In this document: piece by piece, positions 6,757-59,942 of the stretch | Layout of the letters: every line of letters starts with the position of its first letter | How positions within the stretch are numbered: position 1 is the stretch's first letter | Origin: Arenicellales bacterium | GTDB taxonomy: Bacteria > Pseudomonadota > Gammaproteobacteria > Arenicellales > Poriferihabitantaceae | DNA: 64,000 nt | Direction of reading: 5' to 3' | Assembly (NCBI GenBank): GCA_965116335.1 | Contig: OZ220677.1 | Coordinates: 1,315,933 to 1,379,932 of the forward strand | Position numbers and translations under genes: made by a program | Notes under the pieces: generated by a model | The model's input: only the letters and a program-made list of their open reading frames with translations | The model's database searches: none | Told to the model about the DNA's origin: nothing

Positions 6757-6833
6757 TGGTCGGGGTGAGTGGATTCGAACCACCGGCCCCTGCCTCCCGA
6801 AGGCAGTACTCTACCAGGCTGAGCTACACCCCG
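6757..6833 (-). tRNA. tRNA-Pro (anticodon CGG), CCA encoded
   Basis: The reverse complement folds as a cloverleaf. Acceptor CGGGGTG/CACCCCG, anticodon stem CTGCC/GGCAG with loop TTCGGGA, T-arm GGTGG TTCGAAT CCACT, 3' ACCA. Confidence 0.95.
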
Positions 6834-9338: not shown

Positions 9339-9406
9339 ACGCTCGCCGGAACCCCGATCAGGCCGGACGACTTACAAGCTGCTGGTCAGACCCCTGTCTT
9401 CTCCAG

Positions 9407-10843: not shown

Positions 10844-10878
10844 AGTTTCTTCGTTAAAAGCAAATAGTTGTCCGCCCC

Positions 10879-16943: not shown

Positions 16944-16969
16944 CTTTATCTCCTCCAGTCATATAGGAA

Positions 16970-30508: not shown

Positions 30509-30650
30509 CCGTCTTTCCCGTGTAAACGGGAATCCACAATAATATGGAGATTGCGATTACCTGTCATCGTAGGGGCGCCCCTCTGTGGGTGCCCGCTATC
30601 GTTGATACCTGTTCCGACATTTGCGGGAGGGCACAAGACCCTCCCCTACG
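30509..30650. repeat. REP-type hairpin cluster: module A (inverted) 30509-30537, module B 30568-30605, module C 30624-30650
   Basis: Modules recur throughout 44-60 kb. A = GTGGATTCCCGCCTGCGCGGGAAnGACGG. B = CGTAGGGGCGACCCTCTGTGGTCGCCCGCTAnCGTTGA. C = CGGGAGGGCACAAGACCCTCCCCTACG. Confidence 0.75.
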
Positions 30651-30809
30651 ATAGCGGTTCGATCACTCCACAAAACCCACAAAACCCACTTGACAGGCGA
30701 TGACTCCTTATAGCAAACTTATACTCTCAATATCCGGCAAAAAACAGGCTAACGCAATGAAAAAAATAGAAATAAATTCGATTAAGTCCTTGATTTATAG
30801 TATAATTGA

Positions 30810-30873
30810 CCGGATTACCGGATTACCGGATTACCGGATTACCGGATTACCGGATTACCGGATTACCGGATTA
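30810..30873 (+). repeat. Perfect octanucleotide tandem repeat (CCGGATTA) x 8
   Basis: Counted base by base: 64 nt with no mismatch. Starts 4 nt after a TATAAT hexamer (30801-30806) and ends 25 nt before the first in-frame ATG (30899) of the autotransporter ORF. Confidence 0.95.
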
Positions 30874-30898
30874 CGCTTGGCGCGTCGGCGTGACGGCC

Positions 30899-43647: not shown

Positions 43648-44260
43648 TCTATATACCTGGAGTACCCCGAACGGACGTAAAGTGTCCATCATGCTTGAGG
43701 AAACCGGCCTGCCCTACCAGGTTCACCCGGTCGACATCGGCAAGAATGATCAATTCGATGAAGATTTCCTGAAAATAAGCCCGAACAACAAGATTCCGGC
43801 TATCGTCGATGAAGAAAATGGCTTGAGCATGATGGAATCCGGCGCCATCCTGATTTATCTGGCCGACAAAACCGGGATGCTGATGCCACAGGCCAGGCGC
43901 TGGCAAATCCTGGAATGGCTGATGTTCCAGATGGGCGGTTTCGGCCCGATGCTCGGACAAGCCCATCACTTCCTGCACTTCAAGCCCGGAGCCAGTGAAT
44001 ACGCCGAGAAAAGATACAAGGTCGAAGCCCAGCGTCTCTATGCCGTACTCGACGACCACCTGGAAGACCATGAATACGTCGCTGGCGATTACTCAATCGC
44101 CGATATCGCACTATGGCCCTGGGCCTCCCGGTTCGAGTGGCAAAAAGTTGACATGACCGACTTCCCCAACATCAAACGCTGGTACACCCAAATAGCCACC
44201 CGCCCCGCTGTACAAAAAGGCTACCGCATCCCGGTAGATACAGAAATACCAATGCCGTAG
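43640..44260 (+). CDS. Glutathione S-transferase, YfcG-like (Nu class)
   Basis: MINLYTWSTPNGRKVSIMLEETGLPYQVHPVDIGKNDQFDEDFLKISPNNKIPAIVD is colinear with E. coli YfcG as I recall it. The ATG overlaps the ROK gene's end by 8 nt. Confidence 0.85.
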   Translation: MINLYTWSTPNGRKVSIMLEETGLPYQVHPVDIGKNDQFDEDFLKISPNNKIPAIVDEENGLSMMESGAILIYLADKTGMLMPQARRWQILEWLMFQMGGFGPMLGQAHHFLHFKPGASEYAEKRYKVEAQRLYAVLDDHLEDHEYVAGDYSIADIALWPWASRFEWQKVDMTDFPNIKRWYTQIATRPAVQKGYRIPVDTEIPMP

Positions 44261-44261
44261 T

Positions 44262-44315
44262 ATCACTCCCCCCTTGAGGGGGAGTCAAATCGTGCGAAGC
44301 GGATTTGGTGGGGGG
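44262..44315. repeat. REP double-hairpin module DE (reverse orientation); left border of the repeat-rich island
   Basis: ATCACTCCCCCCTTGAGGGGGAGTCAAATCG.GCGAAGCGGATTTGGTGGGGGG. The same element recurs at 47747, 48821, 50086 and 53911. Confidence 0.7.
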
Positions 44316-44321
44316 TTGTTT

Positions 44322-45887
44322 TCAGGCCGGGATTACTTTCACTGCGGCCAGATTCCGGTCTTTGGCACTGAACGCTATGCCGATCAGATGGATGGGTTGG
44401 TTTTGGCTGCGGTACTTGTCGGCATAACCTTTCTCCTGTATCTGTTCAATCGCCTGTTGTGCCGTATCCTCACTATTGCTGTCTGTATCTGACATCTTGA
44501 ACTCAAATACGAATACCTGATCTCCATGCAATACCACCATATCTGCCCGACCCCGGCTGCTGGAATCCTCTACCCGAAGGGTAAGACCAATCGTACAAAA
44601 GCAGGCATATAACATCCCCGCATACCAGGCTTCATATCGAGCCGGACTCCGGGTGGACTGCCACTGATACGGAATCCCGGCGAAGAATGATTGTAGATGC
44701 TCCGTGAATCCATCGAAGTCATTGGCTACCAGCAGACGCGCCAGTTGATCGCCCTGATCTGCTGTTTCGATTCTGCGTCCTGTGATATAACCGAGCAATC
44801 CATGGTTCAGACTCTGTCGCACCTCGAAGTTCGGATAATCCAGCGTGTAGAGAGTCCGTGCACCATCCCATTCTCGTTCGACAAGGGTTAAGTAGCCGGT
44901 CTGAAACAACAGGGCATCAATGGTGATGTCATCTATATCGAAGGTGGAGAGTAAGTCTTCATCAGAGATACGATTCTCCAGTTCCAGTGGACTGATTTCC
45001 CGATCCATCATGACGCGAAACAGGAAAGTCGGGGAACCGGTCTCAAACCAATGCGACTTGAACTGGCGTTTGCGGAACAACAGCAATAGATCAAATGGAT
45101 TGTACAGTTTCTCTTCTCCGAGCCAGTGATAGCCGTTATACCATTTACGGATTTCATCCCGGTCAAGACCGGGTAACTCCGGGGCGAATACGGTGTCGAG
45201 GTCTTTGTCGGTATAGCCGCAGATCGTAGCAAACTCTGGATCCAGGCTGATATTGTCCAGGTTGTTGAGGCCGGAGAACAAACTCACTTTCGAGAACATA
45301 CTGATGCCGGTGACGAAGACGAAGCGGACATCCCGGGCACTGTCCTTGATGATGCCGTAGAAGCCACGCAGGTAATCCCGGTTGGCTCTGGCCATTTCCG
45401 GGTTATCCAGTACATCCAGAATCGGTTTGTCGTATTCGTCTACCAGAATGACGACCTTTCGCCCGGTCTGTGCATGCAGGCGATTCAGTATGTTTCTCAG
45501 ACGGCGGGGGCCGGTGTGCGACTCAGTGGCTTGAGTAAGTCCGTAACGACGTTCTACACTTTCCAACTGCTCGATAATGTCGCCATCCAGTTCGCCAGGC
45601 TCGTTGTACTTGCCACCAAAGCTCAATCGCACCACGGGATGTTTGACCGACCAATCCCAGTGCGGATGGATATGCAACCCCTGAAACAGGACTTCATTGC
45701 CCTCGAACAGTTCCTGTAATGTATCGATCAGCAGACTCTTGCCGAATCGACGTGGGCGAGACAGGAAATAGAAACTCCCCATTTCGACCAGTCGCTGGAT
45801 ATGAGGGGTCTTATCGACGTAGTAGCAGTCCTGTTCCCGAATGGTACGGAAATCCTGGATACCGATGGGGAGTCTATGGCGAGTCAT
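44322..45887 (-). CDS. AAA-ATPase_like domain + PD-(D/E)XK (PDDEXK_9-like) protein
   Basis: N-terminus LPIGIQDFRTIREQDCYYVDKTPHIQRLVEMGSFYFLSRPRRFGKSLLIDTL is the hallmark of this family. The C-terminus RGRADMVVLHGDQVFVFEFK looks like a nuclease core. Confidence 0.8.
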   Translation of the reverse strand: MTRHRLPIGIQDFRTIREQDCYYVDKTPHIQRLVEMGSFYFLSRPRRFGKSLLIDTLQELFEGNEVLFQGLHIHPHWDWSVKHPVVRLSFGGKYNEPGELDGDIIEQLESVERRYGLTQATESHTGPRRLRNILNRLHAQTGRKVVILVDEYDKPILDVLDNPEMARANRDYLRGFYGIIKDSARDVRFVFVTGISMFSKVSLFSGLNNLDNISLDPEFATICGYTDKDLDTVFAPELPGLDRDEIRKWYNGYHWLGEEKLYNPFDLLLLFRKRQFKSHWFETGSPTFLFRVMMDREISPLELENRISDEDLLSTFDIDDITIDALLFQTGYLTLVEREWDGARTLYTLDYPNFEVRQSLNHGLLGYITGRRIETADQGDQLARLLVANDFDGFTEHLQSFFAGIPYQWQSTRSPARYEAWYAGMLYACFCTIGLTLRVEDSSSRGRADMVVLHGDQVFVFEFKMSDTDSNSEDTAQQAIEQIQEKGYADKYRSQNQPIHLIGIAFSAKDRNLAAVKVIPA

Positions 45888-46035
45888 TATCCATGTTCTT
45901 TGAGGAAGGGTTCAGCCATCATGCCACCCAATGCAGGCGTATGCAAGTACGCTAAGATCAATCTACATGGTAATCATCCCTGCAGCCACACGAACAATGT
46001 ATAATGGAATCACAATCAGACAAGTAATCAGGATT

Positions 46036-46257
46036 ATGGGTAGACAATTCACAGCGATCATTGAAAAAGAAGAAGGCGGATATGTATCGTTATGTCCGCA
46101 GTTGGATATTGCAAGCCAGGGTGATACTGTTGCTCAGGCGAGAATGAATCTCCAGGAAGCATTAGAGCTTTTTTTTGAGACGGCATCTACCGAAGAAATC
46201 ACACAGCGGCTGCATTCGGAAGTCTATATTACCCAAATAGAGGCAGCGGTTGGCTAA
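46036..46257 (+). CDS. hicB: HicB-family antitoxin (short, UPF0150-type)
   Basis: MGRQFTAIIEKEEGGYVSLCPQLDIASQGDTVAQARMNLQEALELFFE matches the HicB N-domain pattern. Confidence 0.8.
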   Translation: MGRQFTAIIEKEEGGYVSLCPQLDIASQGDTVAQARMNLQEALELFFETASTEEITQRLHSEVYITQIEAAVG

Positions 46258-46366
46258 ATTAAAAGTGCTGTCCGGTCAGCAAGTTTGTCAGATACTCAGT
46301 GGATTCGGGTTTGAGAAGGTAAGACAACGGGGAAGTCATGCAATAATGCAAAAAGCGGGGAAATGA
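46250..46366 (+). pseudogene. hicA: Truncated hicA toxin gene (N-terminal ~37 codons only)
   Basis: (L)AKLKVLSGQQVCQILSGFGFEKVRQRGSHAIMQKAGK* matches the HicA KLPxxSGxE...GF...RQxGSH pattern but lacks the C-terminal half. The break coincides with the first base of the sequence shared by all four downstream tandem units (GGGGAAATGATTGGCCTG). Confidence 0.7.
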
Positions 46367-46375
46367 TTGGCCTGT

Positions 46376-47026
46376 TCAGGAGAAAATCTGTGGTTTGAAA
46401 TTGTCCTTGTTGATAATGCTGGCGCTGTTGCCGGTGGCTCTGATTACGAATAATCCCTGTTTCTCTGCGTAGACATGCGCTTGTTCATCAGATTTTAACC
46501 AGGCCATCGCTCCATAGACGGTGTTTTTCTTAAAACGCGGCATGCGAGTCGTAACCTTACCCACACTGACCAGGAAATCCTTGACATCCTGCGCCTTCAA
46601 GGTGGTCTTGACTTCAACCACTACAATTTCCTGACCATTGGCCGCAATAATGTCATATTCAAAGTTATCATCGGAGCCGCTTTGTGAAATATTCCGGTAA
46701 ATCTGGTAAACATGAACGCCCTTCTCCTGTAACATCGCAACCAAATCCCCCTCTACCAGACTCTCCACCAACCGTCCCCACCGGCTGTTAAAAGAAGCTT
46801 CGTTCTTTTTAATCTGCTTGTCGGTTTCTTTCATTCGTCTGTCGGTTTCCTTCATTTCCTGCATGAGCCTTTCATGGTCGGCGGCCTGCCTGGCAGCGAT
46901 TTCTGCTATTTCCTGCATGGCTTTTTCATGTCTGGCAGCTTCTCTGGCAGCACCTTCCTCCTGGGCAGCGGCAGTTCTTTCCAAAATCGCCCAGATTTCG
47001 TCTGGAGTGGGTACGGTGGTGGTCAT
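46376..47026 (-). CDS. Coiled-coil + PD-(D/E)XK nuclease-fold protein (DUF3782-like), paralog P1
   Basis: 216 aa. Has a Glu/Ala/Arg-rich N-terminal coiled coil. The C-terminal FEYDIIAANGQEIVVVEVKTTL gives a D-x12-E-V-K motif. Reverse-strand TATAAT (47057-47062) and an AAGGA RBS lie upstream. Confidence 0.8.
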   Translation of the reverse strand: MTTTVPTPDEIWAILERTAAAQEEGAAREAARHEKAMQEIAEIAARQAADHERLMQEMKETDRRMKETDKQIKKNEASFNSRWGRLVESLVEGDLVAMLQEKGVHVYQIYRNISQSGSDDNFEYDIIAANGQEIVVVEVKTTLKAQDVKDFLVSVGKVTTRMPRFKKNTVYGAMAWLKSDEQAHVYAEKQGLFVIRATGNSASIINKDNFKPQIFS

Positions 47027-47132
47027 TTTGATATTCCTTACGGGTAGCGATTGCGGATTATAGCAGAATCGGGGTTGGAGGCGGAGACTGTTCGGGTCTA
47101 TGACATCATTTAATCACAAAGCCCATATTGTT

Positions 47133-47242
47133 GTGGATTCCCGCCTGCGCGGGAAGGACGGGTTGGGGCGGGGGTTGATGGTTGGGTCCCCCCATCACAC
47201 CCGCTTTGCGGGATGTGATTCCCCCTCAAGGGGGGAATGATG
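47133..47242. repeat. REP cluster: module A 47133-47161, module DE 47186-47242
   Basis: Direct reading: hairpins TTCCCGC/GCGGGAA and ATTCCCCC/GGGGGGAAT. Confidence 0.7.
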
Positions 47243-47257
47243 TGATGGTGGGTTGTG

Positions 47258-47566
47258 TCAATCCGTAATTACCGGCCACTGCTCTACCACGCCGGATAAA
47301 TGCCCTATCTGTTGCGTAAGCTGGTTAATTTGCTGGTTGCCCTGATACACAAACCCCAGTATGACCAGTGTCAAAACAAAATGTAATCCGAACATCCAGC
47401 GCAATCCGGCTACATCTCGCTGGACTCCGGCAATGTCAGACTTTGTTGCTAACTGTTCGCCCTGATGCGCGACTGCCTCGGCTACCGCTTCGGCCTGGCT
47501 TGATTCAAACCCGGCTGCTTGCAGTTTTCGTGCTGTCGCCAGTGTGTCGATGGTATACGCTGCCAT
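47258..47566 (-). CDS. DUF1640/CCDC90-like tail-anchored coiled-coil protein, paralog D1 (head N1, tail C1)
   Basis: MAAYTIDTLATARKLQAAGFESSQAEAVAEAV...LATKSDI fits the FDTLxxxxxLxxAGxxxxQAEA...LATKxDL pattern. One C-terminal TM, MFGLHFVLTLVILGFVY. Confidence 0.75.
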   Translation of the reverse strand: MAAYTIDTLATARKLQAAGFESSQAEAVAEAVAHQGEQLATKSDIAGVQRDVAGLRWMFGLHFVLTLVILGFVYQGNQQINQLTQQIGHLSGVVEQWPVITD

Positions 47567-47636
47567 GTCTGTTTCTCCGCTTGTTATTTTATATGTGTCC
47601 TCTGTGGATGGATTCTGCCTGAATCCGTCCGCCCGG

Positions 47637-47800
47637 TCAACGGTAGCGGGCGACCACAGAGGGTCGCCCCTACGATGACTTTACGTGCGGTATCTGAATG
47701 GTTGTGGATTCCCGCCTGCGCGGGAAAGACGGGTTGGGACGAGAAAATCACTCCCCCCTTGAGGGGGAGTCAAATCCGCTTGCGGATTTGGTGGGGGGAC
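47637..47800. repeat. REP cluster: B 47637-47674, A 47704-47732, DE (reverse) 47747-47800
   Basis: Direct reading. The same B-A-DE order recurs at 48711-48874. Confidence 0.75.
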
Positions 47801-47823
47801 GTCGGGGGAAATGATTGGCCTGT

Positions 47824-48627
47824 TCAGGAGAAAATCTGTGGTTTGAAATTGTCCTTGTTGATGATGCTGGCACTGTTGCCGGTGGCTCTGATTACAAATA
47901 ATCCCTGTTTCTCTGCATAGACATGCGCTTGCTCATCAGACTTTAACCAGGCGATCGCTCCATAGACGGTTTTGTCCTTAAAACTCTGCATTCGAGTCGT
48001 AACCTTACCCACACTGACCAGGAAATCCTTGACATCCTGCGCCTTCAAGGTGGTCTTGACTTCAACCACTACAATTTCCTGACCATTGGCCGCAATAATG
48101 TCATATTCAAAGTTATCATCGGAGCCGCTTTGTGAAATATTCCGGTAAATCTGGTAAACATGAACGCCCTTCTCCTGTAACATCGCAACCAAATCCCCCT
48201 CTACCAGACTCTCCACCAACCGTCCCCACCGGCTGTTAAAAGAAGCTTCGTTCTTTTTAATCTGCTTGTCGGTTTCTTTCATTCGTCTGTCGGTTTCCTT
48301 CATTTCCTGCATGAGCTCTTCATGGTCGGCGGCCTGCCTGGCAGCGATTTCTGCTATTTCCTGCATGGATTTTTCATGTCTGGCATCCTCTCTGGCGGCA
48401 GCTTCCTTCCGCCTGGCATCTTCTATGGCGGCGGCTTCCTTCCGCCTGGCATCCTCTATAGCGGCGGCTTCCTCCTGTCTGGCAGCAGCAGCTTCCTCTC
48501 TGGCAGCAGCAGCTTCCTGTCTGGCAGCGGTTTCTTTGCTGATGGCGGCGGTTTCTTCCAGGTTGGCGGAAACTTCTTTCAGAATCGCCCAGATTTCGTC
48601 TGGAGTGGGTACGGTGGTGGTGGTCAT
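47824..48627 (-). CDS. Coiled-coil + PD-(D/E)XK nuclease-fold protein, paralog P2 (longest coiled coil)
   Basis: 267 aa from ATG 48627 (MTTTTVPTPDEIW). The track ORF extends to 48825 only by reading through REP hairpins. The C-terminal ~150 aa are nearly identical to P1, P3 and P4. Confidence 0.8.
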   Translation of the reverse strand: MTTTTVPTPDEIWAILKEVSANLEETAAISKETAARQEAAAAREEAAAARQEEAAAIEDARRKEAAAIEDARRKEAAAREDARHEKSMQEIAEIAARQAADHEELMQEMKETDRRMKETDKQIKKNEASFNSRWGRLVESLVEGDLVAMLQEKGVHVYQIYRNISQSGSDDNFEYDIIAANGQEIVVVEVKTTLKAQDVKDFLVSVGKVTTRMQSFKDKTVYGAIAWLKSDEQAHVYAEKQGLFVIRATGNSASIINKDNFKPQIFS

Positions 48628-48710
48628 TTCGACATTCCTTACAGGTAGCGATTGCGGATTATAGCAGAATCGGGGTTGGAGGCGGAGACTGTTCGGGATC
48701 GGAACGGGTG

Positions 48711-48874
48711 TCAACGATAGCGGGCGACCACAGAGGGTCGCCCCTACGATGACTTTACGTGCGGTATCTGAATGGGTGTGGATTCCCGCTTGTGCGGGAA
48801 TGACGGGTTGGGACGAGAAAATCACTCCCCCCTTGAGGGGGAGTCAAGTCCGCTTGCGGATTTGGTGGGGGGAC
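48711..48874. repeat. REP cluster: B 48711-48748, A 48778-48806, DE (reverse) 48821-48874
   Basis: Direct reading. Confidence 0.75.
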
Positions 48875-48897
48875 GTCGGGGGAAATGATTGGCCTGT

Positions 48898-49647
48898 TCA
48901 GGAGAAAATCTGTGGTTTGAAATTGTCCTTATTGATGATGCTGGCGCTGTTGCCGGTGGCTCTGATCACGAATAATCCCTGTTTCTCTGCATAAACATGC
49001 GCTTGTTCATCAGATTTTAACCAGGCTATCGCTCCATACACGGTGTTATCCTTGAAACGCGGCATGCGAGTCGTAACCTTACTCATACTCACCAGGAAAT
49101 CCTTGACATCCTGCGCCTTCAGGGTGGTCTTGACTTCAACCACTACAATTTCCTGACCATTGGCCGCAATAATGTCATATTCAAAGTTATCATCGGAGCC
49201 GCTTTGTGAAATATTCCGGTAAATCTGGTAAACGTGAACGCCCTTCTCCTGTAACATCGCAACCAAATCCCCCTCTACCAGACTCTCCACCAACCGTCCC
49301 CACCGGCTGTTAAAAGAAGCTTCGTTCTTTTTAATCTGCTTGTCGGTTTCTTTCATTCGTCTGTCGGTTTCCTTCATTTCCTGCATGAGCTCTTCATGGT
49401 CGGCGGCCTGCCTGGCAGCGATTTCTGCTATTTCCTGCATGGCTTTTTCATGTCTGGCATCTTCTATGGCGGCGGCTTCCTTCCGCCTGGCATCCTCTAT
49501 AGCGGCGATTTCTTTTTGGCTGGCGCGAAATTCTGCCATTTCCTGTCTGCCTTTTTCATGGGCCGCGGCGGTTTCCTCCTGGGCAGCGGCGGTTCTTTCC
49601 AAAATCGCCCAGATTTCGTCTGGAGTGGGTACGGTGGTGGTGGTCAT
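48898..49647 (-). CDS. Coiled-coil + PD-(D/E)XK nuclease-fold protein, paralog P3
   Basis: 249 aa from ATG 49647. Same leader, RBS and C-terminal domain as the other paralogs, with a different coiled-coil insert (HEKGRQEMAEFRASQKEIAAIEDARRKE...). Confidence 0.8.
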   Translation of the reverse strand: MTTTTVPTPDEIWAILERTAAAQEETAAAHEKGRQEMAEFRASQKEIAAIEDARRKEAAAIEDARHEKAMQEIAEIAARQAADHEELMQEMKETDRRMKETDKQIKKNEASFNSRWGRLVESLVEGDLVAMLQEKGVHVYQIYRNISQSGSDDNFEYDIIAANGQEIVVVEVKTTLKAQDVKDFLVSMSKVTTRMPRFKDNTVYGAIAWLKSDEQAHVYAEKQGLFVIRATGNSASIINKDNFKPQIFS

Positions 49648-49730
49648 TTCGACATTCCTTACAGGTAGCGATTGCGGATTATAGCAGAATTGGGGTTGGA
49701 GGCGGAGACTGTTCGGGATCGGAACGGGTG

Positions 49731-50139
49731 TCAACGATAGCGGGCGACCACAGAGGGTCGCCCCTACGATGACTTTACGTGCGGTATCTGAATGGTTGTG
49801 GATTCCCGCCTGCGCGGGAAAGACGGATTGGGGCATGCGATGACGGTTGGGTCCCCCCATCCAATCCGGCTGCGGATTGGATTCCCCCTCAAGGGGGGAA
49901 TGATGTTGTAGAGCCTGCGCCTGACCGTTATCGTAGGGGAGGGTCTTGTGCCCTCCCGGGAATGTCGGGCGGGTATCAACGGTAGCGGGCGACCACAGAG
50001 GGTCGCCCCTACGATGACTTTACGTGCGGTATCTGAATGGGTGTGGATTCCCGCTTGTGCGGGAATGACGGGTTGGGACGAGAAAATCACTCCCCCCTTG
50101 AGGGGGAGTCAAGTCCGCTTGCGGATTTGGTGGGGGGAC
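49731..50139. repeat. REP cluster: B 49731-49768, A 49798-49826, DE 49851-49905, C (reverse) 49932-49958, B 49976-50013, A 50043-50071, DE (reverse) 50086-50139
   Basis: Direct reading. Seven modules in 409 bp. Confidence 0.75.
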
Positions 50140-50162
50140 GTCGGGGGAAATGATTGGCCTGT

Positions 50163-50879
50163 TCAGGAGAAAATCTGTGGTTTGAAATTGTCCTTATTGA
50201 TGATGCTGGCGCTGTTGCCGGTGGCTCTGATTACGAATAATCCCTGTTTCTCTGCATAAACATGCGCTTGTTCATCAGACTTTAACCAGGCGGTCGCTCC
50301 ATAGACGGTTTTGTCCTTAAAACTCTGCATTCGAGTCGTAACCTTACCCACACTGACCAGGAAATCCTTGACATCCTGCGCCTTCAAGGTGGTCTTGACT
50401 TCAACCACTACAATTTCCTGACCATTGGCCGCAATGATGTCATATTCAAAGTTATCATCGGAGCCGCTTTGTGAAATATTCCGGTAAATCTGGTAAACAT
50501 GAACGCCCTTCTCCTGTAACATCGCAACCAAATCCCCCTCTACCAGACTCTCCACCAACCGTCCCCACCGGCTGTTAAAAGAAGCTTCGTTCTTTTTAAT
50601 CTGCTTGTCGGTTTCTTTCATTCGTCTGTCGGTTTCCTTCATTTCCTGCATGAGCTCTTCATGGTCGGCGGCCTGCCTGGCAGCGATTTCTGCTATTTCC
50701 TGCATGGCTTTTTCATGTCTGGCATCCTCTATGGCGGCGGCTTCCTCCTGTCTGGCAGCAGCAGCTTCCTGTCTGGCAGCGGTTTCTTTGCTGATGGCGG
50801 CGGTTTCTTCCAGGTTGGCGGAAACTTCTTTCAGAATCGCCCAGATTTCGTCTGGAGTGGGTACGGTGGTGGTGGTCAT
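50163..50879 (-). CDS. Coiled-coil + PD-(D/E)XK nuclease-fold protein, paralog P4
   Basis: 238 aa from ATG 50879. Matches P2 but lacks two internal repeat units. Confidence 0.8.
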   Translation of the reverse strand: MTTTTVPTPDEIWAILKEVSANLEETAAISKETAARQEAAAARQEEAAAIEDARHEKAMQEIAEIAARQAADHEELMQEMKETDRRMKETDKQIKKNEASFNSRWGRLVESLVEGDLVAMLQEKGVHVYQIYRNISQSGSDDNFEYDIIAANGQEIVVVEVKTTLKAQDVKDFLVSVGKVTTRMQSFKDKTVYGATAWLKSDEQAHVYAEKQGLFVIRATGNSASIINKDNFKPQIFS

Positions 50880-50962
50880 TTCGACATTCCTTACAGGTAG
50901 CGATTGCGGATTATAGCAGAATTGGGGTTGGAGGCGGAGACTGTTCGGGATCGGAACGGGTG

Positions 50963-51290
50963 TCAACGATAGCGGGCGACCACAGAGGGTCGCCCCTACG
51001 ATGACTTTACGTGCGGTATCTGAATGGTTGTGGATTCCCGCCTGCGCGGGAAGGACGGGTTGGGGCGTAGGAGGACGGGTGGTTGGGGTGTGGGTTGGCG
51101 GATGGTTGGGGCGTGGGATTACGGTTGTGCCCCCCCATCCAATCCGGTTGCGGATTGGATTCCCCCTCAAGGGGGGAATGATGTTGTAGAGCCTGCTCCC
51201 GAACGTTATCGTAGGGGAGGGTCTTGTGCCTTCCCGCGAATGTCGGGCGGGTATCAACGGTAGCGGGCACCCACAAGGGGCACCCCTACG
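50963..51290. repeat. REP cluster: B 50963-51000, A 51030-51058, DE 51128-51183, C (reverse) 51210-51236, B variant 51254-51290
   Basis: Direct reading. The B variant has stem GGGCACCC/GGGTGCCC in place of GGGCGACC/GGTCGCCC. Confidence 0.75.
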
Positions 51291-51318
51291 ACCAAGCCGG
51301 GGGCAGGCGGCTTACGCT

Positions 51319-53766: not shown

Positions 53767-53910
53767 CTACCCAGACTCCAGATTGTTGGTTGGTTCAGCA
53801 TCAGCGCAGGCGCCAACGCCCGAATTAGCAATATCCAGCGATATTAAACGCAACAATAAACAAAGTCAAACAAAAGAACATCCAATCATTGCCCGGTCTG
53901 CGGCAAGAAA

Positions 53911-54060
53911 ATCACTCCCCCCTTGAGGGGGAGTCAAATCCGCTCACGGATTTGGTGGGGGGAATTGACGAGTGGGGCTGGGGATGATGGTAGCGGGAGG
54001 GCACAAGACCCTCCCCTACGCATCGGTAATTGCGGATTTCGTATGGTTGTGGATTCCTGT
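53911..54060. repeat. REP cluster: DE (reverse) 53911-53963, C 53994-54020, truncated A from 54049
   Basis: Direct reading. Confidence 0.7.
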
Positions 54061-54104
54061 CATCGTTCGTTGTTTGACGGATTGTGTCAATTCTCCCTGA
54101 TGCG

Positions 54105-54506
54105 CTACTGCCTCGGCCATTGTTCTACTACGCCGGATAAATGTCCTACCTGTTGCGTAAGCTGGGTGATTTGCTGGTTAATTTGCTGGTTGCCTTGATA
54201 CACAAACCCTAATATGACCAGCGTCAAAACAAAATGTAATCCGAACATCCAGCGCAACCCGACTACATCTTGCCGGACTCCTGCCACTTCCCCCCGGACT
54301 CCGGCAATTTCCTGGCGTAGTGATTTTTCCACCGCTTTCAGGTCGGACTGTACCAGTTTCAGGTCGGCCTTTGTTGCCAGGTCGTCTCCATGGCTTCCTA
54401 CTACTTCGGCGACTGTCTCGGCCACCGCCTCAGCCTGGATAGTCTCAAAACCTGCCTTTTCCAACTTCCGCATGGTGGCCAGGGTATCAATCGCTATGGT
54501 TGTCAT
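54105..54506 (-). CDS. DUF1640-like tail-anchored coiled-coil protein, paralog D2 (head N2, tail C1)
   Basis: MTTIAIDTLATMRKLEKAGFETIQAEAVAETVAEVVG...LATKADLKLVQSDLKAVEKSLRQEIAGVRGEVAGVRQDVVGLRW, then a TM segment and YQGNQQINQQITQLTQQVGHLSGVVEQWPRQ. Confidence 0.75.
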   Translation of the reverse strand: MTTIAIDTLATMRKLEKAGFETIQAEAVAETVAEVVGSHGDDLATKADLKLVQSDLKAVEKSLRQEIAGVRGEVAGVRQDVVGLRWMFGLHFVLTLVILGFVYQGNQQINQQITQLTQQVGHLSGVVEQWPRQ

Positions 54507-54561
54507 GATTCTTTCCTGATGTTTATTTGTATTGGTTCCTGTTATTGTTCGCCCTGATACG

Positions 54562-55026
54562 CTATTGCTTCGTCCACTGTTCTACTACGCCGGATAAATG
54601 CCCTACCTGTTGCGTAAGCTGGGTGATTTGCTGGTTAATTTGCTGGTTGCCTTGATACATAAACCCGAATATAACCAGATTCAAAGCAACCACAAACCCG
54701 GCAACAATCCCGAATGTCCAGCGCAATCCGGCTACTTCCCCTCGGACTCCGGCAATTTCCTGGCGTAGTGATTTTTCTACCGCTTTCAGGTCGGACTGTA
54801 CTACTTTCAAGTCGGACTGTACTACTTTCAGGTCAGACTGTACTACTTTCAAGTCGGACTTCACTACTTTCAGGTCGGACTGTACCAGTTTCAGGTCGGC
54901 CTTTGTTGCCAGGTCGTCTCCCTGGCGTCCTACTACTTCGGCCACCGCCTCAGCCTGGACAGTCTCAAACCCTGCCTTTTCCAGCTTCCGCATGGTGGCC
55001 AGGGTATCAATCGCTATGGTTGCCAT
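54562..55026 (-). CDS. DUF1640-like tail-anchored coiled-coil protein, paralog D3 (head N2, expanded heptad array, tail C2)
   Basis: 154 aa. Contains DLKLVQSDLKVVKSDLKVVQSDLKVVQSDLKVVQSDLKAVEK. Tail is TFGIVAGFVVALNLVIFGFMYQGNQQ...EQWTKQ. Confidence 0.75.
   Translation of the reverse strand: MATIAIDTLATMRKLEKAGFETVQAEAVAEVVGRQGDDLATKADLKLVQSDLKVVKSDLKVVQSDLKVVQSDLKVVQSDLKAVEKSLRQEIAGVRGEVAGLRWTFGIVAGFVVALNLVIFGFMYQGNQQINQQITQLTQQVGHLSGVVEQWTKQ
54783..54900. repeat. 21-bp tandem repeat (CTTTCArGTCrGACTGTACTA, 5-6 units) encoding the heptad VVQSDLK inside D3
   Basis: Units at 54783, 54804, 54825, 54846 and 54867, with a partial unit at 54888. The other paralogs carry 0-1 units. Confidence 0.9.
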
Positions 55027-55083
55027 GAGCCTTTCCTGATGTTGATTGGTATTGGTTCGAAGATTACTGCACGGCTTGCTCGG

Positions 55084-55422
55084 TCAACCTGCCGTCAAGA
55101 TGGCCATTATTCCGGCCACTTCCTGTCCGATAGTGAATACCTGCCACGTCAGGGCAGCCATAATCCCCAACATAGCCAGCGTAAAGGCAAAATGTAATCC
55201 GAACATCCAGCGCAATCCGGCAATTTCCTGGCGTAGTGATTTTTCCACCGCTTTCAGGTCGGACTGTACCAGTTTCAGGTCGGCCTTTGTTGCCAGGTCG
55301 TCTCCCTGGCTTCCTACTACTTCGGCGACTGTCTCGGCCACCGCCTCAGCCTGGACAGTCTCAAAACCTGCCTTTTCCAGCTTCCGCATGGTGGCCAGGG
55401 TATCAATCGCTATAGTTGTCAT
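55084..55422 (-). CDS. DUF1640-like tail-anchored coiled-coil protein, paralog D4 (head N2, tail C3)
   Basis: Tail MFGLHFAFTLAMLGIMAALTWQVFTIGQEVAGIMAILTAG. Confidence 0.75.
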   Translation of the reverse strand: MTTIAIDTLATMRKLEKAGFETVQAEAVAETVAEVVGSQGDDLATKADLKLVQSDLKAVEKSLRQEIAGLRWMFGLHFAFTLAMLGIMAALTWQVFTIGQEVAGIMAILTAG

Positions 55423-55479
55423 GATCCTTTCCTGATGTTGGTTGGTATTGGTTCGAAGATTACTGCACGGCTTGCTCGG

Positions 55480-55752
55480 TCAACCTGCCGTCAAGATGGC
55501 CATTATTCCGGCCACTTCCTGTCCGATAGTGAATACCTGCCACGTCAGGGCAGCCATAATCCCCAACATAGCCAGCGTAAAGGCAAAATGTAATCCGAAC
55601 ATCCAGCGCAATCCGGCAATGTCGGACTTTGTTGCTAACTGTTCGCCTTGATGCGCTACTGCCTCGGCTACCGCTTCGGCCTGGCTTGATTCAAACCCGG
55701 CTGCTTGCAGTTTTCGTGCTGTCGCCAGTGTGTCGATGGTATACGCTGCCAT
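55480..55752 (-). CDS. DUF1640-like tail-anchored coiled-coil protein, paralog D5 (head N1, tail C3)
   Basis: Head is identical to D8 and D1. Tail is identical to D4. Confidence 0.75.
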   Translation of the reverse strand: MAAYTIDTLATARKLQAAGFESSQAEAVAEAVAHQGEQLATKSDIAGLRWMFGLHFAFTLAMLGIMAALTWQVFTIGQEVAGIMAILTAG

Positions 55753-55790
55753 GTCTGTTTCTCCGCTTGGTATTTCCTTATGTATCCTCT

Positions 55791-55819
55791 ATGGATGGAT
55801 TGTGCCTGAATCCATCCAT
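55791..55819. repeat. Leader hairpin ATGGATGGATT-N7-AATCCATCCAT specific to N1-type DUF1640 genes (also at 57126-57154; degenerate copy near 47607-47630)
   Basis: 11-bp perfect stem about 37 nt upstream of the D5 start, followed by a truncated REP A module. Confidence 0.6.
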
Positions 55820-55916
55820 CCGGTCAATGATCCGTATGGTTGTGGATTCCTGTCATCGTTCGTTATTTGACGGATTGTGTCAATTCTCCCTGATGCGCTA
55901 CTGCCTCGGCCACTCC

Positions 55917-56243
55917 TCAGCCTGCCGTCAAGATGGCTACATCGCGCCAGATAGCGAACAGAAAGCCCAACATAATCAGCGTAAAGGCAAAATGTAATCC
56001 GAACATCCAGCGCAATCCTGCCACTTCCCCCCGGACTCCGGTAATTTCCCCCCGGACTCCGGCAATTTCCTGGCGTAGTGATTTTTCTACCGCTTTCAGG
56101 TCGGCCTTTGTTGCCAGGTCGTCTCCCTGGCGTCCTACTACTTCGGCGACTGTCTCGGCCACCGCCTCAGCCTGGACAGTCTCAAACCCTGCCTTTTCCA
56201 GCTTCCGCATGGTGGCCAGGGTATCAATCGCTATGGTTGTCAT
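55917..56243 (-). CDS. DUF1640-like tail-anchored coiled-coil protein, paralog D6 (head N2, tail C4)
   Basis: Tail MFGLHFAFTLIMLGFLFAIWRDVAILTAG. The middle has a duplicated GVRGEI/GVRGEV unit. Confidence 0.75.
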   Translation of the reverse strand: MTTIAIDTLATMRKLEKAGFETVQAEAVAETVAEVVGRQGDDLATKADLKAVEKSLRQEIAGVRGEITGVRGEVAGLRWMFGLHFAFTLIMLGFLFAIWRDVAILTAG

Positions 56244-56343
56244 GAGCCTTTCCTGATGTTGATTGGTATTGGTTCCTATTGCGTCAAGGCAAAATGTAAT
56301 CCGGTAATGTCGGACTTCGTCGCTAACTGTTCGCCTTGATGCG

Positions 56344-56694
56344 CTACTGCCTCGGCCATTGCTCTACTACGCCGGATAAATGCCCTACCTGTTGCGTAAG
56401 CTGGGTGATTTGCTGGTTAATTTGCTGGTTGCCTTGATACATAAACCCGAATATGACCAGATTCAAAGCAACCACAAACCCGGCGACAATCCCGAATGTC
56501 CAGCGCAATCCGGCTATTTCCTGGCGTAGTGATTTTTCTACCACTTTCAGGTCGGCCTTTGTTGCCAGGTCGTCTCCCTGGCGTCCTACTACTTCGGCGA
56601 CTGTCTCGGCCACCGCCTCAGCCTGGACAGTCTCAAACCCTGCCTTTTCCAGCTTCCGCATGGTGGCCAGGGTATCAATCGCTATGGTTGTCAT
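56344..56694 (-). CDS. DUF1640-like tail-anchored coiled-coil protein, paralog D7 (head N2, tail C2)
   Basis: Head as in D6, tail as in D3. Confidence 0.75.
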   Translation of the reverse strand: MTTIAIDTLATMRKLEKAGFETVQAEAVAETVAEVVGRQGDDLATKADLKVVEKSLRQEIAGLRWTFGIVAGFVVALNLVIFGFMYQGNQQINQQITQLTQQVGHLSGVVEQWPRQ

Positions 56695-56794
56695 GATCCT
56701 TTCCTGATGTTGGTTGGTATTGGTTCCTATTGCGTCAAGGCAAAATGTAATCCGTCAATGTCGGACTTCGTCGCTAACTGTTCGCCTTGATACG

Positions 56795-57088
56795 CTACTG
56801 CCTCGGCCATTGTTCTACTACGCCGGACAAATGTCCTACCTGTTGCGTAAGATGGGTGATTTGCTGGTTAATTTGCTGGTTGCCTTGATACACAAACGCC
56901 AGTATGACCAGTGTCAAAGCAACGTGTAATCCGAACATCCAGCGCAATCCGGCAATGTCGGACTTTGTTGCTAACTGTTCGCCTTGATGCGCTACTGCCT
57001 CGGCTACCGCTTCGGCCTGGCTTGATTCAAACCCGGCTGCTTGCAGTTTTCGTGCTGTCGCCAGTGTGTCGATGGTATACGCTGCCAT
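56795..57088 (-). CDS. DUF1640-like tail-anchored coiled-coil protein, paralog D8 (head N1, tail C1)
   Basis: Head as in D5 and D1, tail as in D2. Confidence 0.75.
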   Translation of the reverse strand: MAAYTIDTLATARKLQAAGFESSQAEAVAEAVAHQGEQLATKSDIAGLRWMFGLHVALTLVILAFVYQGNQQINQQITHLTQQVGHLSGVVEQWPRQ

Positions 57089-57125
57089 GTCTGTTTCTCC
57101 GCTTGTTATTTCCTTATGTATCCTC

Positions 57126-57469
57126 TATGGATGGATTGTGCCTGAATCCATCCATCCGGTCAATGATCCGTATGGTTGTGGACTCCCGTTTGCGGATTGG
57201 ATTCCCCCTCAAGGGGGGAATGATTTGGATACATGGATCGAAATGATGTTGTAGGGGAGGGTCTCTGTGCCCTCCCGCGAATGATCGAACAGGAATCAAC
57301 GGTAGCGGACAGGCACAGAGGCCTGTCCCTACGATGACAGTAGGTACACCATCCGTATGGTTGTGGATTCCCGCTTGCGCGGGAAAGACGGTTGGGGCGG
57401 GGGGATTACGGTTGTGTCCCCCCATCCAATCCGTTTGCGGATTGGATTCCCCCTCAAGGGGGGAATGAT
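57126..57469. repeat. REP cluster: N1 leader hairpin 57126-57154, A/E hybrid + D about 57177-57225, C (reverse) 57250-57276, B variant 57295-57332, A 57362-57390, DE 57415-57469
   Basis: Direct reading. The B variant has stem GGACAGGC/GCCTGTCC. Confidence 0.7.
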
Positions 57470-57492
57470 TTGATGATGGTTGTGGATTGCGG

Positions 57493-59616
57493 TTATTTGC
57501 TCGCTTCGTAAACGCCTGCGGCTACGCCGCCGATGACGACTTCATTATTGTCATCAACGCCATCGTAGAACTCGGCCTCGAAGCCGCCGTAAAAACCGGT
57601 GGGGCGTTGCCCGGAGTCACCATACGAGTCCGCGCTCCATCGGCCATCACCATCGCCATTGGTGATGGTGATTGTACTGTCTATGGTCTCATCGCTGAGT
57701 CCCGCCGCCTGTAGCTCGAGACTCCAGCCGGTATCTACATGGCCGCTGCCTCCGACGGACCGGAAGTTGTCAATCGTGCCCTCCAGCATCGGGTCAGCGT
57801 CGAAAGTCGCCCGTAGTTCCACATCCGCCGCGAAGTGGCCGGATGCGAATACCTCATCGTCTCCGGCGCCGGTCTTGCGCGCTGAGAGGCCGACGGCCTT
57901 GCCGGTATAGGTGGCGCTGCCATCCAGAGTGGTACTGGCACCGAATTCCAGAGTGTTCGCTGGTGAGCGTGGCCCGACCCAGTTGATTCGACGGTGGAGT
58001 CCCAGGTTGTTGTCGTCTCCGTCCAGCCACATACCGTAATCAATGTATCCGACTGCCTCCCAGATGTCATCTTCATCGGAGTCCTGATAGCCGGCCACTG
58101 TCGTGTCATATCCAACACTACTCTGCTTGCTACTCACAACAGGCGTGAAGTACCAGCCTGAGCCGAGGCGTCCAGTGCTACCATGTGTACAGCCGCCGGC
58201 GCGGTCACAGTAGAGCGAGCCGACAATGCCGTTCCATCGAACAATTTGGGGGACAGCATCACGGGCTACAGATGCAGTCAGCGTATCACCCGGAGTGTAC
58301 GGGACAAATTCAGTCGTTTTCTTGAACTCCACAAGCATCGCAGGATGATTTTCCGGCAGGCCCGTTGAGGTATGTGTAGCAGTATCTACCGTGCTATCTG
58401 ATTGAAGAAAATTTTTCATGGCCCGGAAGTCATTATCCTCGCTGTATATGTCGACAAAAGTCATCCGTGTTCCTGTCGGTTGGTCGGCGCGGGCGAAGAC
58501 GTGATAGTCCGGGTTATCAAGATCGGCAACATCGGAGGTGAAAATGTCGGAGTCGGGATTGTCAGGCAAACCCTCAAGCAAGTCGAACACCAACTCCGCT
58601 TTTTCAGTTTCGGTGGCGGCCTCATCATCGCCTACTGCCCGTTTCCACTCTGCGAGGTCTATCTGGAACTGGTCCCGGATGCGTTCAATCTCATCAACAT
58701 GACCTGCGGCCGTATCCGCTTCCGTGCGCTTGGCAGTGGCTGCTGTGTCCGCATTGTCGGCATCGGTTTGAAGTTGAGTGGCTTTTGTTTCTTTGTTATC
58801 CGCTTCCGTGCGCTTGGCAGTGGCTTCTGCCTTCGCGGTTTCCAGATCACTCTTTAGTTGTATGTACGCGTCACCCATCCTGATGGCATCCGCCTGCGCC
58901 CGCTGGACCTCGATCTGCGGGTCAGTCGGGTCAAGGCCTTTCAAGCGTTCCGCTTCTGCTTCATAGCCGGCGATAAGATCGTTCTGAATATTGAGATCGT
59001 CCTGAAGTCTGTCACGCTTCCCTTCGGCATCAGAAGCAGCAGTCTTGAGACCGGGCACAGGCATCATGGCTTCATCCGCATCGTCCTGGAGATCATCCGC
59101 TACCTCCTTGAGATCGTCGGCTTCGTCTGCTAAAGCACTCTGTGCCTTCTCGGCTTCCGTAAAAGCTTTCTTGATTTTCTCAACTTCGGTCTCAATCGTG
59201 GCTATGTCTTCGTAGGCGCCTGTCGCAATGCCTGCGGATACACCCATGGCAGGGCTTATGGTATTGGACGGGAAATCGTGGATGGGAGAACCCTCAATCG
59301 TAGCTAATATCGCTGTCTGTGCGGTTTTCGTATCCATCTCGGCATCTGCCGCCTTATGAATGTCGGGGCGTGTATCTTTGGGAGGAGGAGGAGGAGGAGG
59401 ATTGCGGCTACTACTACCAGAACCGCCGCTACCGGCCATGTTTTCCTCTCCGTTGTCGGTATCCTCGCCTGTGCCGTCGTCTTCTGTATTTCCGGTGTCG
59501 GGGTCTTCAACGGGGGGGGGTACGGGTGTGCTTACAGCCGCGCTTCCCCCGCCTCCGCAGGCGGTCAGTAACAGGCTCAGGCTCGCTGCAATAAAAATGG
59601 ATGCTATCGGGTTCAT
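57493..59616 (-). CDS. Large lipoprotein with coiled-coil region and C-terminal TbpB/fHbp-like beta-barrel domain, paralog L2
   Basis: MNPIASIFIAASLSLLLTAC followed by GGGG (lipobox), a poly-Pro/Gly/Asp linker, an Ala/Glu/Asp-rich helical region, and C-terminus GSATYTGKAVG..GHFAADVELRATF..LEGTIDNF..GFYGGFEAEFY. The track start 59643 is TTG, so ATG 59616 with an AGGAAA RBS is preferred. Confidence 0.7.
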   Translation of the reverse strand: MNPIASIFIAASLSLLLTACGGGGSAAVSTPVPPPVEDPDTGNTEDDGTGEDTDNGEENMAGSGGSGSSSRNPPPPPPPKDTRPDIHKAADAEMDTKTAQTAILATIEGSPIHDFPSNTISPAMGVSAGIATGAYEDIATIETEVEKIKKAFTEAEKAQSALADEADDLKEVADDLQDDADEAMMPVPGLKTAASDAEGKRDRLQDDLNIQNDLIAGYEAEAERLKGLDPTDPQIEVQRAQADAIRMGDAYIQLKSDLETAKAEATAKRTEADNKETKATQLQTDADNADTAATAKRTEADTAAGHVDEIERIRDQFQIDLAEWKRAVGDDEAATETEKAELVFDLLEGLPDNPDSDIFTSDVADLDNPDYHVFARADQPTGTRMTFVDIYSEDNDFRAMKNFLQSDSTVDTATHTSTGLPENHPAMLVEFKKTTEFVPYTPGDTLTASVARDAVPQIVRWNGIVGSLYCDRAGGCTHGSTGRLGSGWYFTPVVSSKQSSVGYDTTVAGYQDSDEDDIWEAVGYIDYGMWLDGDDNNLGLHRRINWVGPRSPANTLEFGASTTLDGSATYTGKAVGLSARKTGAGDDEVFASGHFAADVELRATFDADPMLEGTIDNFRSVGGSGHVDTGWSLELQAAGLSDETIDSTITITNGDGDGRWSADSYGDSGQRPTGFYGGFEAEFYDGVDDNNEVVIGGVAAGVYEASK

Positions 59617-59710
59617 TTTGTTTGTTTCCTGGTAGATCAGCAATGGTCAGCAATTCTGCCCAACCTGAAAACTACTGTCAACCGTCGGGACAGGAATTAC
59701 CGGTACAGGA

Positions 59711-59935
59711 ATCCAACGGTAGCGGGAGGGTACAAGACCCTCCCTTACGATTACGTTACGCACAGCATCTGAATGGTTGTGGATTCCCGTTTGCACGGGA
59801 AAGACGGATTGGAGCGTGGGTGGCGATTGTGTCCCCCCATCCAATCCGTTTGCGGATTGGATTCCCCCTCAAGGGGGGAATGATATGAGGGCGGATTGGG
59901 GCGTGGGGTGGCGATTGCGGGAGGGTACAAGACCC
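59711..59935. repeat. REP cluster: B/C hybrid 59711-59749, A 59779-59807, DE 59831-59884, partial C 59918-59935; right border of the island
   Basis: Direct reading. Confidence 0.7.
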
Positions 59936-59942
59936 ACCACTG

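Follow-up and report, generated by a model that had tools for sequence, protein, structure and literature searches.

A REP-rich locus of an Arenicellales bacterium carrying tandem, shuffled genes for predicted stalked PD-(D/E)XK nucleases, DUF1640-like coiled-coil proteins and candidate surface lipoproteins

Variable arrays of paralogous genes are a known phenomenon: in the Vlp/Vsa systems of Mycoplasma, the M proteins of streptococci and the pilE/pilS genes of Neisseria, a constant module is combined with in-frame, length-variable repeats, and tandem paralogs recombine with each other. Multi-copy nucleases are represented by the Rpn (YhgA-like) PD-(D/E)XK enzymes of enterobacteria, which are stand-alone, dispersed and without a fixed partner, and for which roles in recombination or genetic conflict have been proposed. 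Here, we describe a locus present in a 64,000-bp stretch of the genome of an Arenicellales bacterium (GenBank assembly GCA_965116335.1, contig OZ220677.1, positions 1,315,933 to 1,379,932; this entire stretch is referred to in the following as the window). Between a glutathione S-transferase (GST) gene, whose stop codon is located at position 44260, and the end of moaA (59943; Radical_SAM and Mob_synth_C domains according to Pfam), 15 genes are all positioned on the minus strand. They comprise a single DUF1703-type gene (A), four genes for predicted coiled-coil PD-(D/E)XK nucleases (P), eight genes for DUF1640-like, tail-anchored coiled-coil proteins (D), and two genes for large lipoproteins (L), an inventory that confirms the boundaries and family counts given in a preliminary description of this DNA. 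We read the locus as a lineage-specific recombination hotspot rich in repetitive extragenic palindromic (REP) hairpins, in which three unrelated gene families were tandemly amplified and shuffled, and not as one obligate system; we assign this reading a probability of roughly 0.55.

The kind of protein represented by each family is already known, most of these kinds being uncharacterised. P proteins resemble the DUF3782/DUF8196 endonucleases (PF12644, PF26618; PMC4786415), with which they share an N-terminal coiled-coil stalk followed by a domain of the restriction-endonuclease fold with conserved D...E-x-K catalytic residues; like the other bacterial members of that family, they lack the nonad periodicity of its crenarchaeal representatives. 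D proteins have in common with MCUR1/CCDC90B (DUF1640, PF07798; 6h9m, 6h9l) a head with an F/I-D-T...G-F...Q-A-E motif, an L-A-T-K-x-D beta-layer, a coiled-coil stalk, and a C-terminal transmembrane anchor. However, they are bacterial proteins of only 90-154 amino acids and occur in eight copies; their heads and tails are swapped between copies, their heptad number varies, and they cannot have the mitochondrial scaffold role known from eukaryotic members. Hartmann et al. (2016; PMC4786415) defined the beta-layer motif as [aliphatic]-A-T-K-[polar]-[D/E] for DUF1640 and had already observed it in DUF3782 nuclease stalks. L proteins can be compared with the cargo of the type 11 secretion system (T11SS; Slam/DUF560), e.g., TbpB, fHbp, NHBA, and HpuA (PMC12282271, PMC8406197), whose design consists of a lipobox, a disordered stretch, long helices, a beta pedestal and a barrel. 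Shared features are the signal peptidase II lipobox, the disordered linker, an N-terminal "effector" region, rapid sequence evolution, and the location of one homologue near a SlipAM gene. In contrast to the described cargo proteins, L has no match to the Pfam TbpB_B_D or lipoprotein C models, its effector part is a helical/coiled-coil region of about 220 amino acids, no Slam gene is present within the window, and the bacterium appears to be a marine sponge symbiont rather than an animal pathogen. Finally, the A protein has the same architecture as the DUF1703 proteins expanded in Cardinium cCpun, a recombining multi-copy nuclease family of host-associated bacteria (PMC6387759); unlike these, gene A is present in a single copy, is under purifying selection, and lies outside of the repeat array.

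A recombination-driven hypervariability had been proposed for the GST-moaA interval, and a comparison with a relative bears this out. The same locus is present in a circular 2.70-Mb sister genome, in which the flanks are 93% identical and the genes are arranged in the order moaA - L (434 + 283 amino acids) - six D - L (822 amino acids) - two P - hicB - A. Gene order is thus kept, whereas the content is not: six instead of seven D genes are found between the two L genes, and two instead of four P genes follow. In addition, the D modules of the sister genome are combined differently, and one of its D proteins contains seven LKVVQSD heptads in comparison with a maximum of six in the window. The moaA-proximal L gene is split into open reading frames of 434 and 283 codons, and behind the other L gene, its last approximately 100 codons recur as a duplicated 3' fragment (both anomalies are covered by positions 8684-10852 and 16561-17082 of the sister locus L004). 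A second line of evidence is provided by a 12.8-kb metagenome contig (L001) that is 100% identical to window positions 43000-47640 and then carries an rve transposase gene instead of P2; its divergent part (positions 1-2195) represents either a structural variant present in the population or the insertion of an insertion sequence (IS) element into a REP cluster. Collectively, the differences seen in the sister genome and in L001 indicate that the locus is syntenic but structurally variable. When 78 metagenome loci with moaA genes of 25-70% identity were inspected, P, L, A, or GST genes were not found beside moaA; at 70% identity or less, these loci are too distant to date the insertion. In one locus (L114), an unrelated metagenome contig, a short DUF1640-type gene (approximately 540-794) encoding a head, an LATKAD motif and a transmembrane anchor is located directly upstream of a moaA gene (961-1998; 49% identical), which is probably a coincidence.

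The 13.6-kb paralog array consists of tandem, recombining copies of P, D, and L, and the mosaic nature of these paralogs can be read from their modules. In the four P proteins, the last approximately 150 residues are identical save for a few substitutions, most of which fall into one patch (MPRFKKN / MQSFKDK / MPRFKDN). Differences are otherwise confined to two alternative N-proximal segments and to 0-50 stalk residues that stem from in-frame repeats of 33 and 21 nt. P1 (46376-47026; 216 amino acids) possesses the shortest stalk, and P2 (47824-48627; 267 amino acids counted from the Met residue) the longest, with 3.2 copies of the 33-nt repeat in addition to 21-nt repeats; P3 (48898-49647) and P4 (50163-50879) comprise 249 and 238 amino acids, respectively. 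Each D protein has a conserved head, which is followed by a coiled coil and, at the C-terminus, by a hydrophobic anchor, and the eight copies combine two head modules, one to six LKVVQSD heptads, zero to two GVRGEV units and three tail modules. D1 (47258-47566; 102 amino acids), with an N2 head and a C1 tail, stands apart from the seven tandem genes D2 to D8 (54105-57088; individually 54105-54506, 54562-55026, 55084-55422, 55480-55752, 55917-56243, 56344-56694, and 56795-57088). Hence, the preliminary view that each family combines a near-identical constant part with a varying coiled coil is correct for P and D; it fails for L, since L1 and L2 are only 36% identical overall. The suggestion of a contingency locus in the sense of phase-variable on/off switching is not supported either, because all repeats found are in frame and alter only the length of the proteins.

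We envisage that unequal crossing-over and gene conversion between the near-identical modules and the REP clusters would generate this variability, that slippage could add or remove the in-frame 21- and 33-nt repeats, and that the nuclease module of P may have been homogenised by gene conversion or by recent duplication. A constant module joined to a part of variable length is usual for surface antigens and not for enzymes. In contrast to the surface-antigen arrays mentioned above, P carries no signal peptide and is predicted to be an enzyme of the cytoplasm, the tail-anchored D would likewise have most of its mass on the cytoplasmic side, and no on/off repeats were found.

The REP hairpins are concentrated within the locus. 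Two REP motifs have nine and 12 matches in the window, eight and 11 of which, respectively, fall inside the island, and none is expected from shuffled sequences; the four copies of a third hairpin, with the stem ATCCAATCCG, all lie inside the island. A REP hairpin on the minus strand (GACTCCCCCTCAAGGGGGGAGTGAT; 44262-44286) separates the stop codons of the GST gene and gene A. The larger gaps (231-515 nt) are filled with hairpins, namely those between P1 and D1 (47027-47257), D1 and P2 (47567-47823), P2 and P3 (48628-48897), P3 and P4 (49648-50162; three hairpin types), P4 and L1 (50880-51318), L1 and D2 (53767-54104), D8 and L2 (57089-57492), and L2 and moaA (59617-59942). It had been stated that every intergenic gap is filled in this way; this does not apply to the six gaps between D2 and D8 (55-164 nt), which carry no REP element. 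Read-through of REP DNA also accounts for an open reading frame at 57114-57425 and for the long N-terminal extensions ("PAQAGIH...") of the P reading frames, both of which are non-coding.

One hairpin type, consisting of a 9-bp stem followed by GATTTTCT, scores as terminator-like in that orientation. It is found about 55 nt downstream of P2 (47770-47750), P3 (48844-48824) and P4 (50109-50089), and, at a distance of about 170 nt, 3' of the last gene of the D2-D8 array (53934-53914), which it closes. This distribution suggests that the P genes form separate transcription units and that D8 to D2 are expressed as one operon-like unit, an arrangement with which the short, REP-free gaps of the D array agree. 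In a promoter scan, the number of sites was no higher than in shuffled sequence, and a scan with Rfam yielded sub-threshold whalefall-1 matches only, all of them on REP hairpins. These whalefall-1 (RF01762) matches (27-29.5 bits; gathering score, 37) are located on the plus strand at 47748-47800, 48822-48874, and 50087-50139 and coincide with the REP hairpin 3' of P2, P3, and P4; it is possible that whalefall-1, a metagenome-derived "sRNA" (small RNA) motif, has a relationship to elements of the REP type.

Assembly is difficult across repeats as long and similar as those seen here (1.07-1.45 kb; 95-99% identity), and a short-read contig (L002) breaks in the REP cluster next to moaA, so that one might ask whether the repeat structure is an artefact of collapse or expansion during metagenome assembly. 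We consider this scarcely credible, since an independently assembled circular genome shows the same architecture and an independent contig matches 4.6 kb of the window at 100% identity. Moreover, the copies differ by diagnostic indels and substitutions. The P loci most closely related to those of the window come from metagenome-assembled genomes (MAGs) labelled Ca. Poriferihabitaceae or Arenicellales, and the source of the window looks like a sponge-associated gammaproteobacterium of this kind. Ca. Poriferihabitaceae are on record from sponges, in metagenomes sequenced with HiFi reads and assembled with metaMDBG; the contig naming of the related loci, together with this published pipeline, points to the same type of assembly.

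P is a predicted cytoplasmic nuclease in which a long coiled-coil helix is followed by a PD-(D/E)XK domain with intact catalytic residues. An AlphaFold2 model (mean predicted local distance difference test score [pLDDT] 78; >85 over the domain) displays a single helix (residues 8-101) and then a compact alpha/beta domain. Foldseek matches of this model are weak; they are headed by EndoMS/NucS (E 4.5e-3, probability 1.00), with XisH, Cdn1, and MspJI next in rank. The Pfam model Hjc is matched with 26.6 bits (cut-off, 21.1), so that the AlphaFold2 model, the Foldseek matches and Pfam together place P in the restriction-endonuclease-like fold. The DUF3782 model, by comparison, is scored with 16.3 bits, below its cut-off of 24.4, and PF26618 (DUF8196) appears in precomputed annotations of a P protein and of many homologues, but not in our local Pfam scan. 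Across 23 aligned, diverse family members and in all six copies of the window and the sister genome, residues E123, D125, E138, and K140 do not vary; the ESLVEGDL segment that links the stalk to the enzyme is likewise invariant in the 23-member alignment. A search of the P profile against the PDB sequences returned designed coiled coils only, and a comparison of the model with viral structures gave nothing informative. From its family membership and context, P, possibly together with D, may plausibly serve as a conflict nuclease: it could act as an oligomerising DNA nuclease in genetic conflicts with phages or mobile DNA and would, in Arenicellales, often have an inner-membrane D protein as its partner.

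A homology search with P yielded 2,641 hits, and scanning one genome per GTDB species confirmed 523 P-containing stretches. According to their record labels, the best 78 of these stem from Arenicellales, other Gammaproteobacteria, Ca. Multivorans, Bdellovibrionales, Thermoanaerobaculia and other Acidobacteriota, Spirochaetia, and a few lake Bacteroidota; judged from the isolate names, many of which are those of sponge or coral binning studies, the P-bearing MAGs would mostly originate from sponges and corals. Tandem P arrays with differing numbers of KETDRxM-type heptads were observed in MAGs of Gammaproteobacteria, Acidobacteriota (Thermoanaerobaculia, Vicinamibacteraceae), Spirochaetia, and Bdellovibrionales. 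The largest of them, in a Gammaproteobacteria MAG (L024; 4797-12389), holds eight co-directional copies in 7.6 kb, one of which is frameshifted; four copies each are present in L041 and L030 and five or more in L071, again with differing heptad numbers. Because such arrays recur in several phyla, the combination of a constant nuclease with a variable stalk is a property of the family and not of the window. Rpn nucleases belong to a different PD-(D/E)XK family and possess neither a coiled-coil stalk nor tandem arrays. For the DUF3782/DUF8196 family, we found in the literature that we searched no report of tandem arrays with graded stalk lengths, nor any indication that its members abound in MAGs of sponge or coral symbionts from several phyla. 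The same searches yielded no description of cytoplasmic nucleases that vary in length like antigens, in tandem and across phyla of host-associated bacteria, here next to DUF1640 arrays.

Housekeeping genes predominate immediately next to P in 57 independent loci, a few transposase and toxin genes also occur there, and no gene family recurs in more than two of these loci. The multi-copy and dispersed occurrence of P, often as a single insert between unrelated housekeeping genes, in many genomes is what one would expect from selfish genes that spread through the breaks they make themselves or through REP-mediated recombination, without benefit to the cell and with the array as a by-product. Frameshifted or fragmentary copies in the arrays L024, L071, L075, and L026, the IS element at the array of the population variant L001 and the truncation of hicA by the array would fit this explanation too. 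We nevertheless regard it as distinctly unlikely: P is accompanied by no terminal repeats, transposase or target-site pattern, it is absent from the phage and plasmid collections searched, homologues from different phyla are only 41-50% identical so that recent transfer is not evident, and all four copies retain a strictly conserved nuclease module whose catalytic residues are intact.

The relationship of D to the DUF1640 proteins is apparent from its motifs rather than from profile scores. The best-scoring copy of the window reaches 28.2 bits with PF07798, below the gathering cut-off of 33.5; precomputed PF07798 annotation covers many D homologues, including P0121, a protein that is 100% identical to D2. 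The best PDB match, at a weak E of 0.027, is CCDC90B (6h9m), to which residues 4-73 of the D profile align. D matches PHROG 17872 (3.8e-12), the head motif is invariant in all eight copies, the beta-layer motif L-A-T-K-A/S-D at the start of the stalk is equally invariant, and every copy ends, as read from the sequence, in a hydrophobic stretch of about 20 residues after G-L-R-W. Only D matched phage families in PHROGs, all of which are of unknown function. D-like genes are present in Bordetella phages (vB_BaM-IFTN) and in APSE-7 (L165, 3501-3887; L166, 3501-3866), where they adjoin repressor/antirepressor genes of opposite orientation, a moron-like position typical of accessory or exclusion genes expressed during lysogeny. 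The D3 tail scores above the cut-off of the Pfam model MbeD/MobD; in combination with the phage positions, this hints at an exclusion-type role for D and is not evidence of one. Three D genes built from the head and tail modules of the window lie in tandem in locus L086 (3953-5136; JGI metagenome 3300003251, contig prefix IrcVar), next to genes for CbbQ, ribose-5-phosphate isomerase, and an M48 peptidase; this D-only array shows that D arrays occur at more than one chromosomal site.

Is P connected to D? In a word-indexed search, 42 D relatives were recovered, largely on large contigs that also bear close relatives of P. A direct adjacency of the two genes was detected in Arenicellales and in one Vicinamibacteraceae MAG (L030) only: P is followed by D in the window and in the Arenicellales MAG locus L003, and L011 displays a strict P-D-P-D-P-D-P alternation on one strand. 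One may consequently consider a two-component conflict system in which a D trimer at the inner membrane docks or regulates the nuclease and graded stalks set its distance or specificity, with L as a passenger. That both families have coiled coils of variable length, that they had been linked before through the beta-layer motif of their stalks (PMC4786415), and that D-like genes occupy immunity-region positions in temperate phages would be in line with such a system. We rate it as rather unlikely, since D occurs within 10 kb of P in about nine of the 57 loci and is missing from the other 48 or so, where the neighbours are heterogeneous, since D arrays without P exist (L086; D2-D8 of the window), and since no D gene lies among the P genes of the sister genome. 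In addition, the P and D genes are separated by gaps of about 150-260 nt, and the gap of the window contains a terminator-like hairpin, which argues against their coupling; a match in PADLOC was not obtained either. A more far-reaching version, in which P with its frequent partner D constitutes a conflict system not described so far and especially widespread among symbionts of sponges and corals from several phyla, whose identical tandem nucleases on graded stalks are re-dealt by recombination, and in which stalk length or docking to the D trimer sets the target or working distance, strikes us as quite unlikely.

The lipoproteins L1 (51319-53766; 815 amino acids) and L2 (57493-59616; 707 amino acids) start, like most of their homologues, with the lipobox LLLTAC followed by GGGG. 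In L1, a Gly-rich linker, long helices, a beta pedestal and a C-terminal barrel follow. The AlphaFold2 model of L2 (pLDDT 68) comprises a disordered linker, helices over residues ~130-348 (about 220 amino acids), a beta region, and a strand-rich C-terminal segment (566-706) with eight listed strands and a block pLDDT of mostly 77-91. Top Foldseek matches of L2 in the PDB are to the C-terminal barrel of neisserial NHBA (6cuj; E 1.6e-4, target TM-score 0.46-0.50). Two genes downstream of the L homologue P0177 (locus L085) lies a PF04575 SlipAM gene; such a gene was seen in this one of the six L contexts outside of the window, and it was absent from the sister locus, the four other contexts, and the window itself. 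An exhaustive search with the C-terminal 370 residues of L gathered 386 representative clusters, so that L represents a moderately large, unnamed family. L evolves several times faster than its neighbours: in comparison with the sister genome, the ratio of nonsynonymous to synonymous substitution rates (dN/dS) is 0.62 for L1 and 0.78-0.86 for L2, but 0.14 for moaA and 0.12 for A. With its overall design, L looks like a T11SS (Slam) cargo, and the predicted fold of L2, the SlipAM neighbour and the dN/dS values point in the same direction. From family and context, L would be a lipoprotein that is secreted to the surface, experiences diversifying or relaxed selection, faces the host or the environment and may diversify for this reason. 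As a candidate for a common downstream partner of L, the genes of about 350 codons that follow three homologues were considered and rejected because they are unrelated. In locus L167 (1372-4649, 6678-9593), an L homologue directly follows a Porin_4 gene, and about 3 kb away there is a pair of AAA_21/OLD-TOPRIM and UvrD-helicase genes that looks like Gabija.

The preliminary description had gone one step further and had considered P, D, and L as components of a single functional system. All three families are indeed united in one co-directional block, and the order L - D array - L - P array is kept in the sister genome, as one would predict for an envelope-spanning machinery that connects a nuclease in the cytosol, via a coiled coil at the inner membrane, with a lipoprotein on the surface. 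L, however, occurs near P in the window and the sister genome only. Five L homologues elsewhere reside in other genomes among unrelated genes with neither P nor D nearby, and none of the best 78 of the 523 P loci contains L outside of this lineage. One L gene of the sister genome is split, and one homologue has a Slam-type gene in its vicinity instead. Because L is not associated with P or D elsewhere, and because P is usually found alone, among heterogeneous neighbours, the single-system model is unsupported; we consider it very improbable and largely refuted.

Several findings nonetheless weigh against a recombination hotspot of separate families with the functions that we ascribe to them. 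The synteny comparison rests on a single related genome, and the D array has an L gene on either side in both genomes, so that L and D may be linked locally. With respect to P and D, the enrichment of D near P outside of the Arenicellales is modest, PADLOC matched no system with either protein (P gave only a weak CARF_PDDEXK match, 2e-6), and tblastn searches of phage and plasmid collections retrieved no relatives of P. With respect to L, neither L1 and L2 nor ten further family members have a Pfam match, L itself had no family-level match in NCBIfam, and both L2 alone and a 43-member L profile retrieved from the PDB sequences coiled-coil noise and no TbpB, fHbp, or NHBA.

Sponge symbionts are known for large and poorly understood expansions of genes for defence and host interaction, and the locus provides three leads in this context. 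P offers a testable nuclease family with more than 2,600 relatives, in which a constant enzyme and variable stalks are arrayed in at least four phyla. L would extend the candidate cargo of type 11 secretion, with a helical "effector" region, to marine sponge symbionts. Lastly, REP-rich gene shuffling in an uncultured symbiont can be traced in long-read metagenomes. Should P, alone or together with D, prove to act in defence, this would constitute a new defence system; otherwise, the locus is a clear example of the dynamics of paralog arrays.

The array ends on its left side within the GST-moaA interval. Gene A (44322-45887, minus strand), whose product scores with the Pfam models AAA-ATPase_like (6.4e-63) and PDDEXK_9 (1.6e-22), is followed on the opposite strand by an intact hicB-like antitoxin gene (46036-46254; weak UPF0150/HicB_lk matches) and by a hicA gene (46250-46363) that is truncated after profile positions 1-29 of 58 (HicA_toxin, 1.9e-07, 31.5 bits). 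This truncation had been noted before and is real, albeit positioned inside the interval and not at its left edge. Since hicA breaks off about 12 nt short of the P1 stop codon, the repeat array starts near position 46373, with A and hicB outside; the hicA-array junction, the real left boundary of the array, is also present in the sister genome (97.8% identity). In PADLOC, A gave a weak LmuA match (4e-4), and D and L2 gave none. As described previously, integrase, transposase and phage genes are absent from the interval, and a scan for tRNA boundaries located the sole tRNA gene of the window at 6757. An integrated mobile element or genomic island was rejected as an explanation, given that there is no integrase or tRNA target and that the same site is occupied in the sister genome. 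The GC content is 0.51-0.55 in the locus as compared with 0.60 in the left and 0.54 in the right flank. Elsewhere in the window (30806-35515, plus strand), a 1,569-amino-acid protein is encoded that contains a He_PIG Ig-like domain and is otherwise without a Pfam match; just upstream of its gene, at 30515-30535, lies a copy of a REP element.

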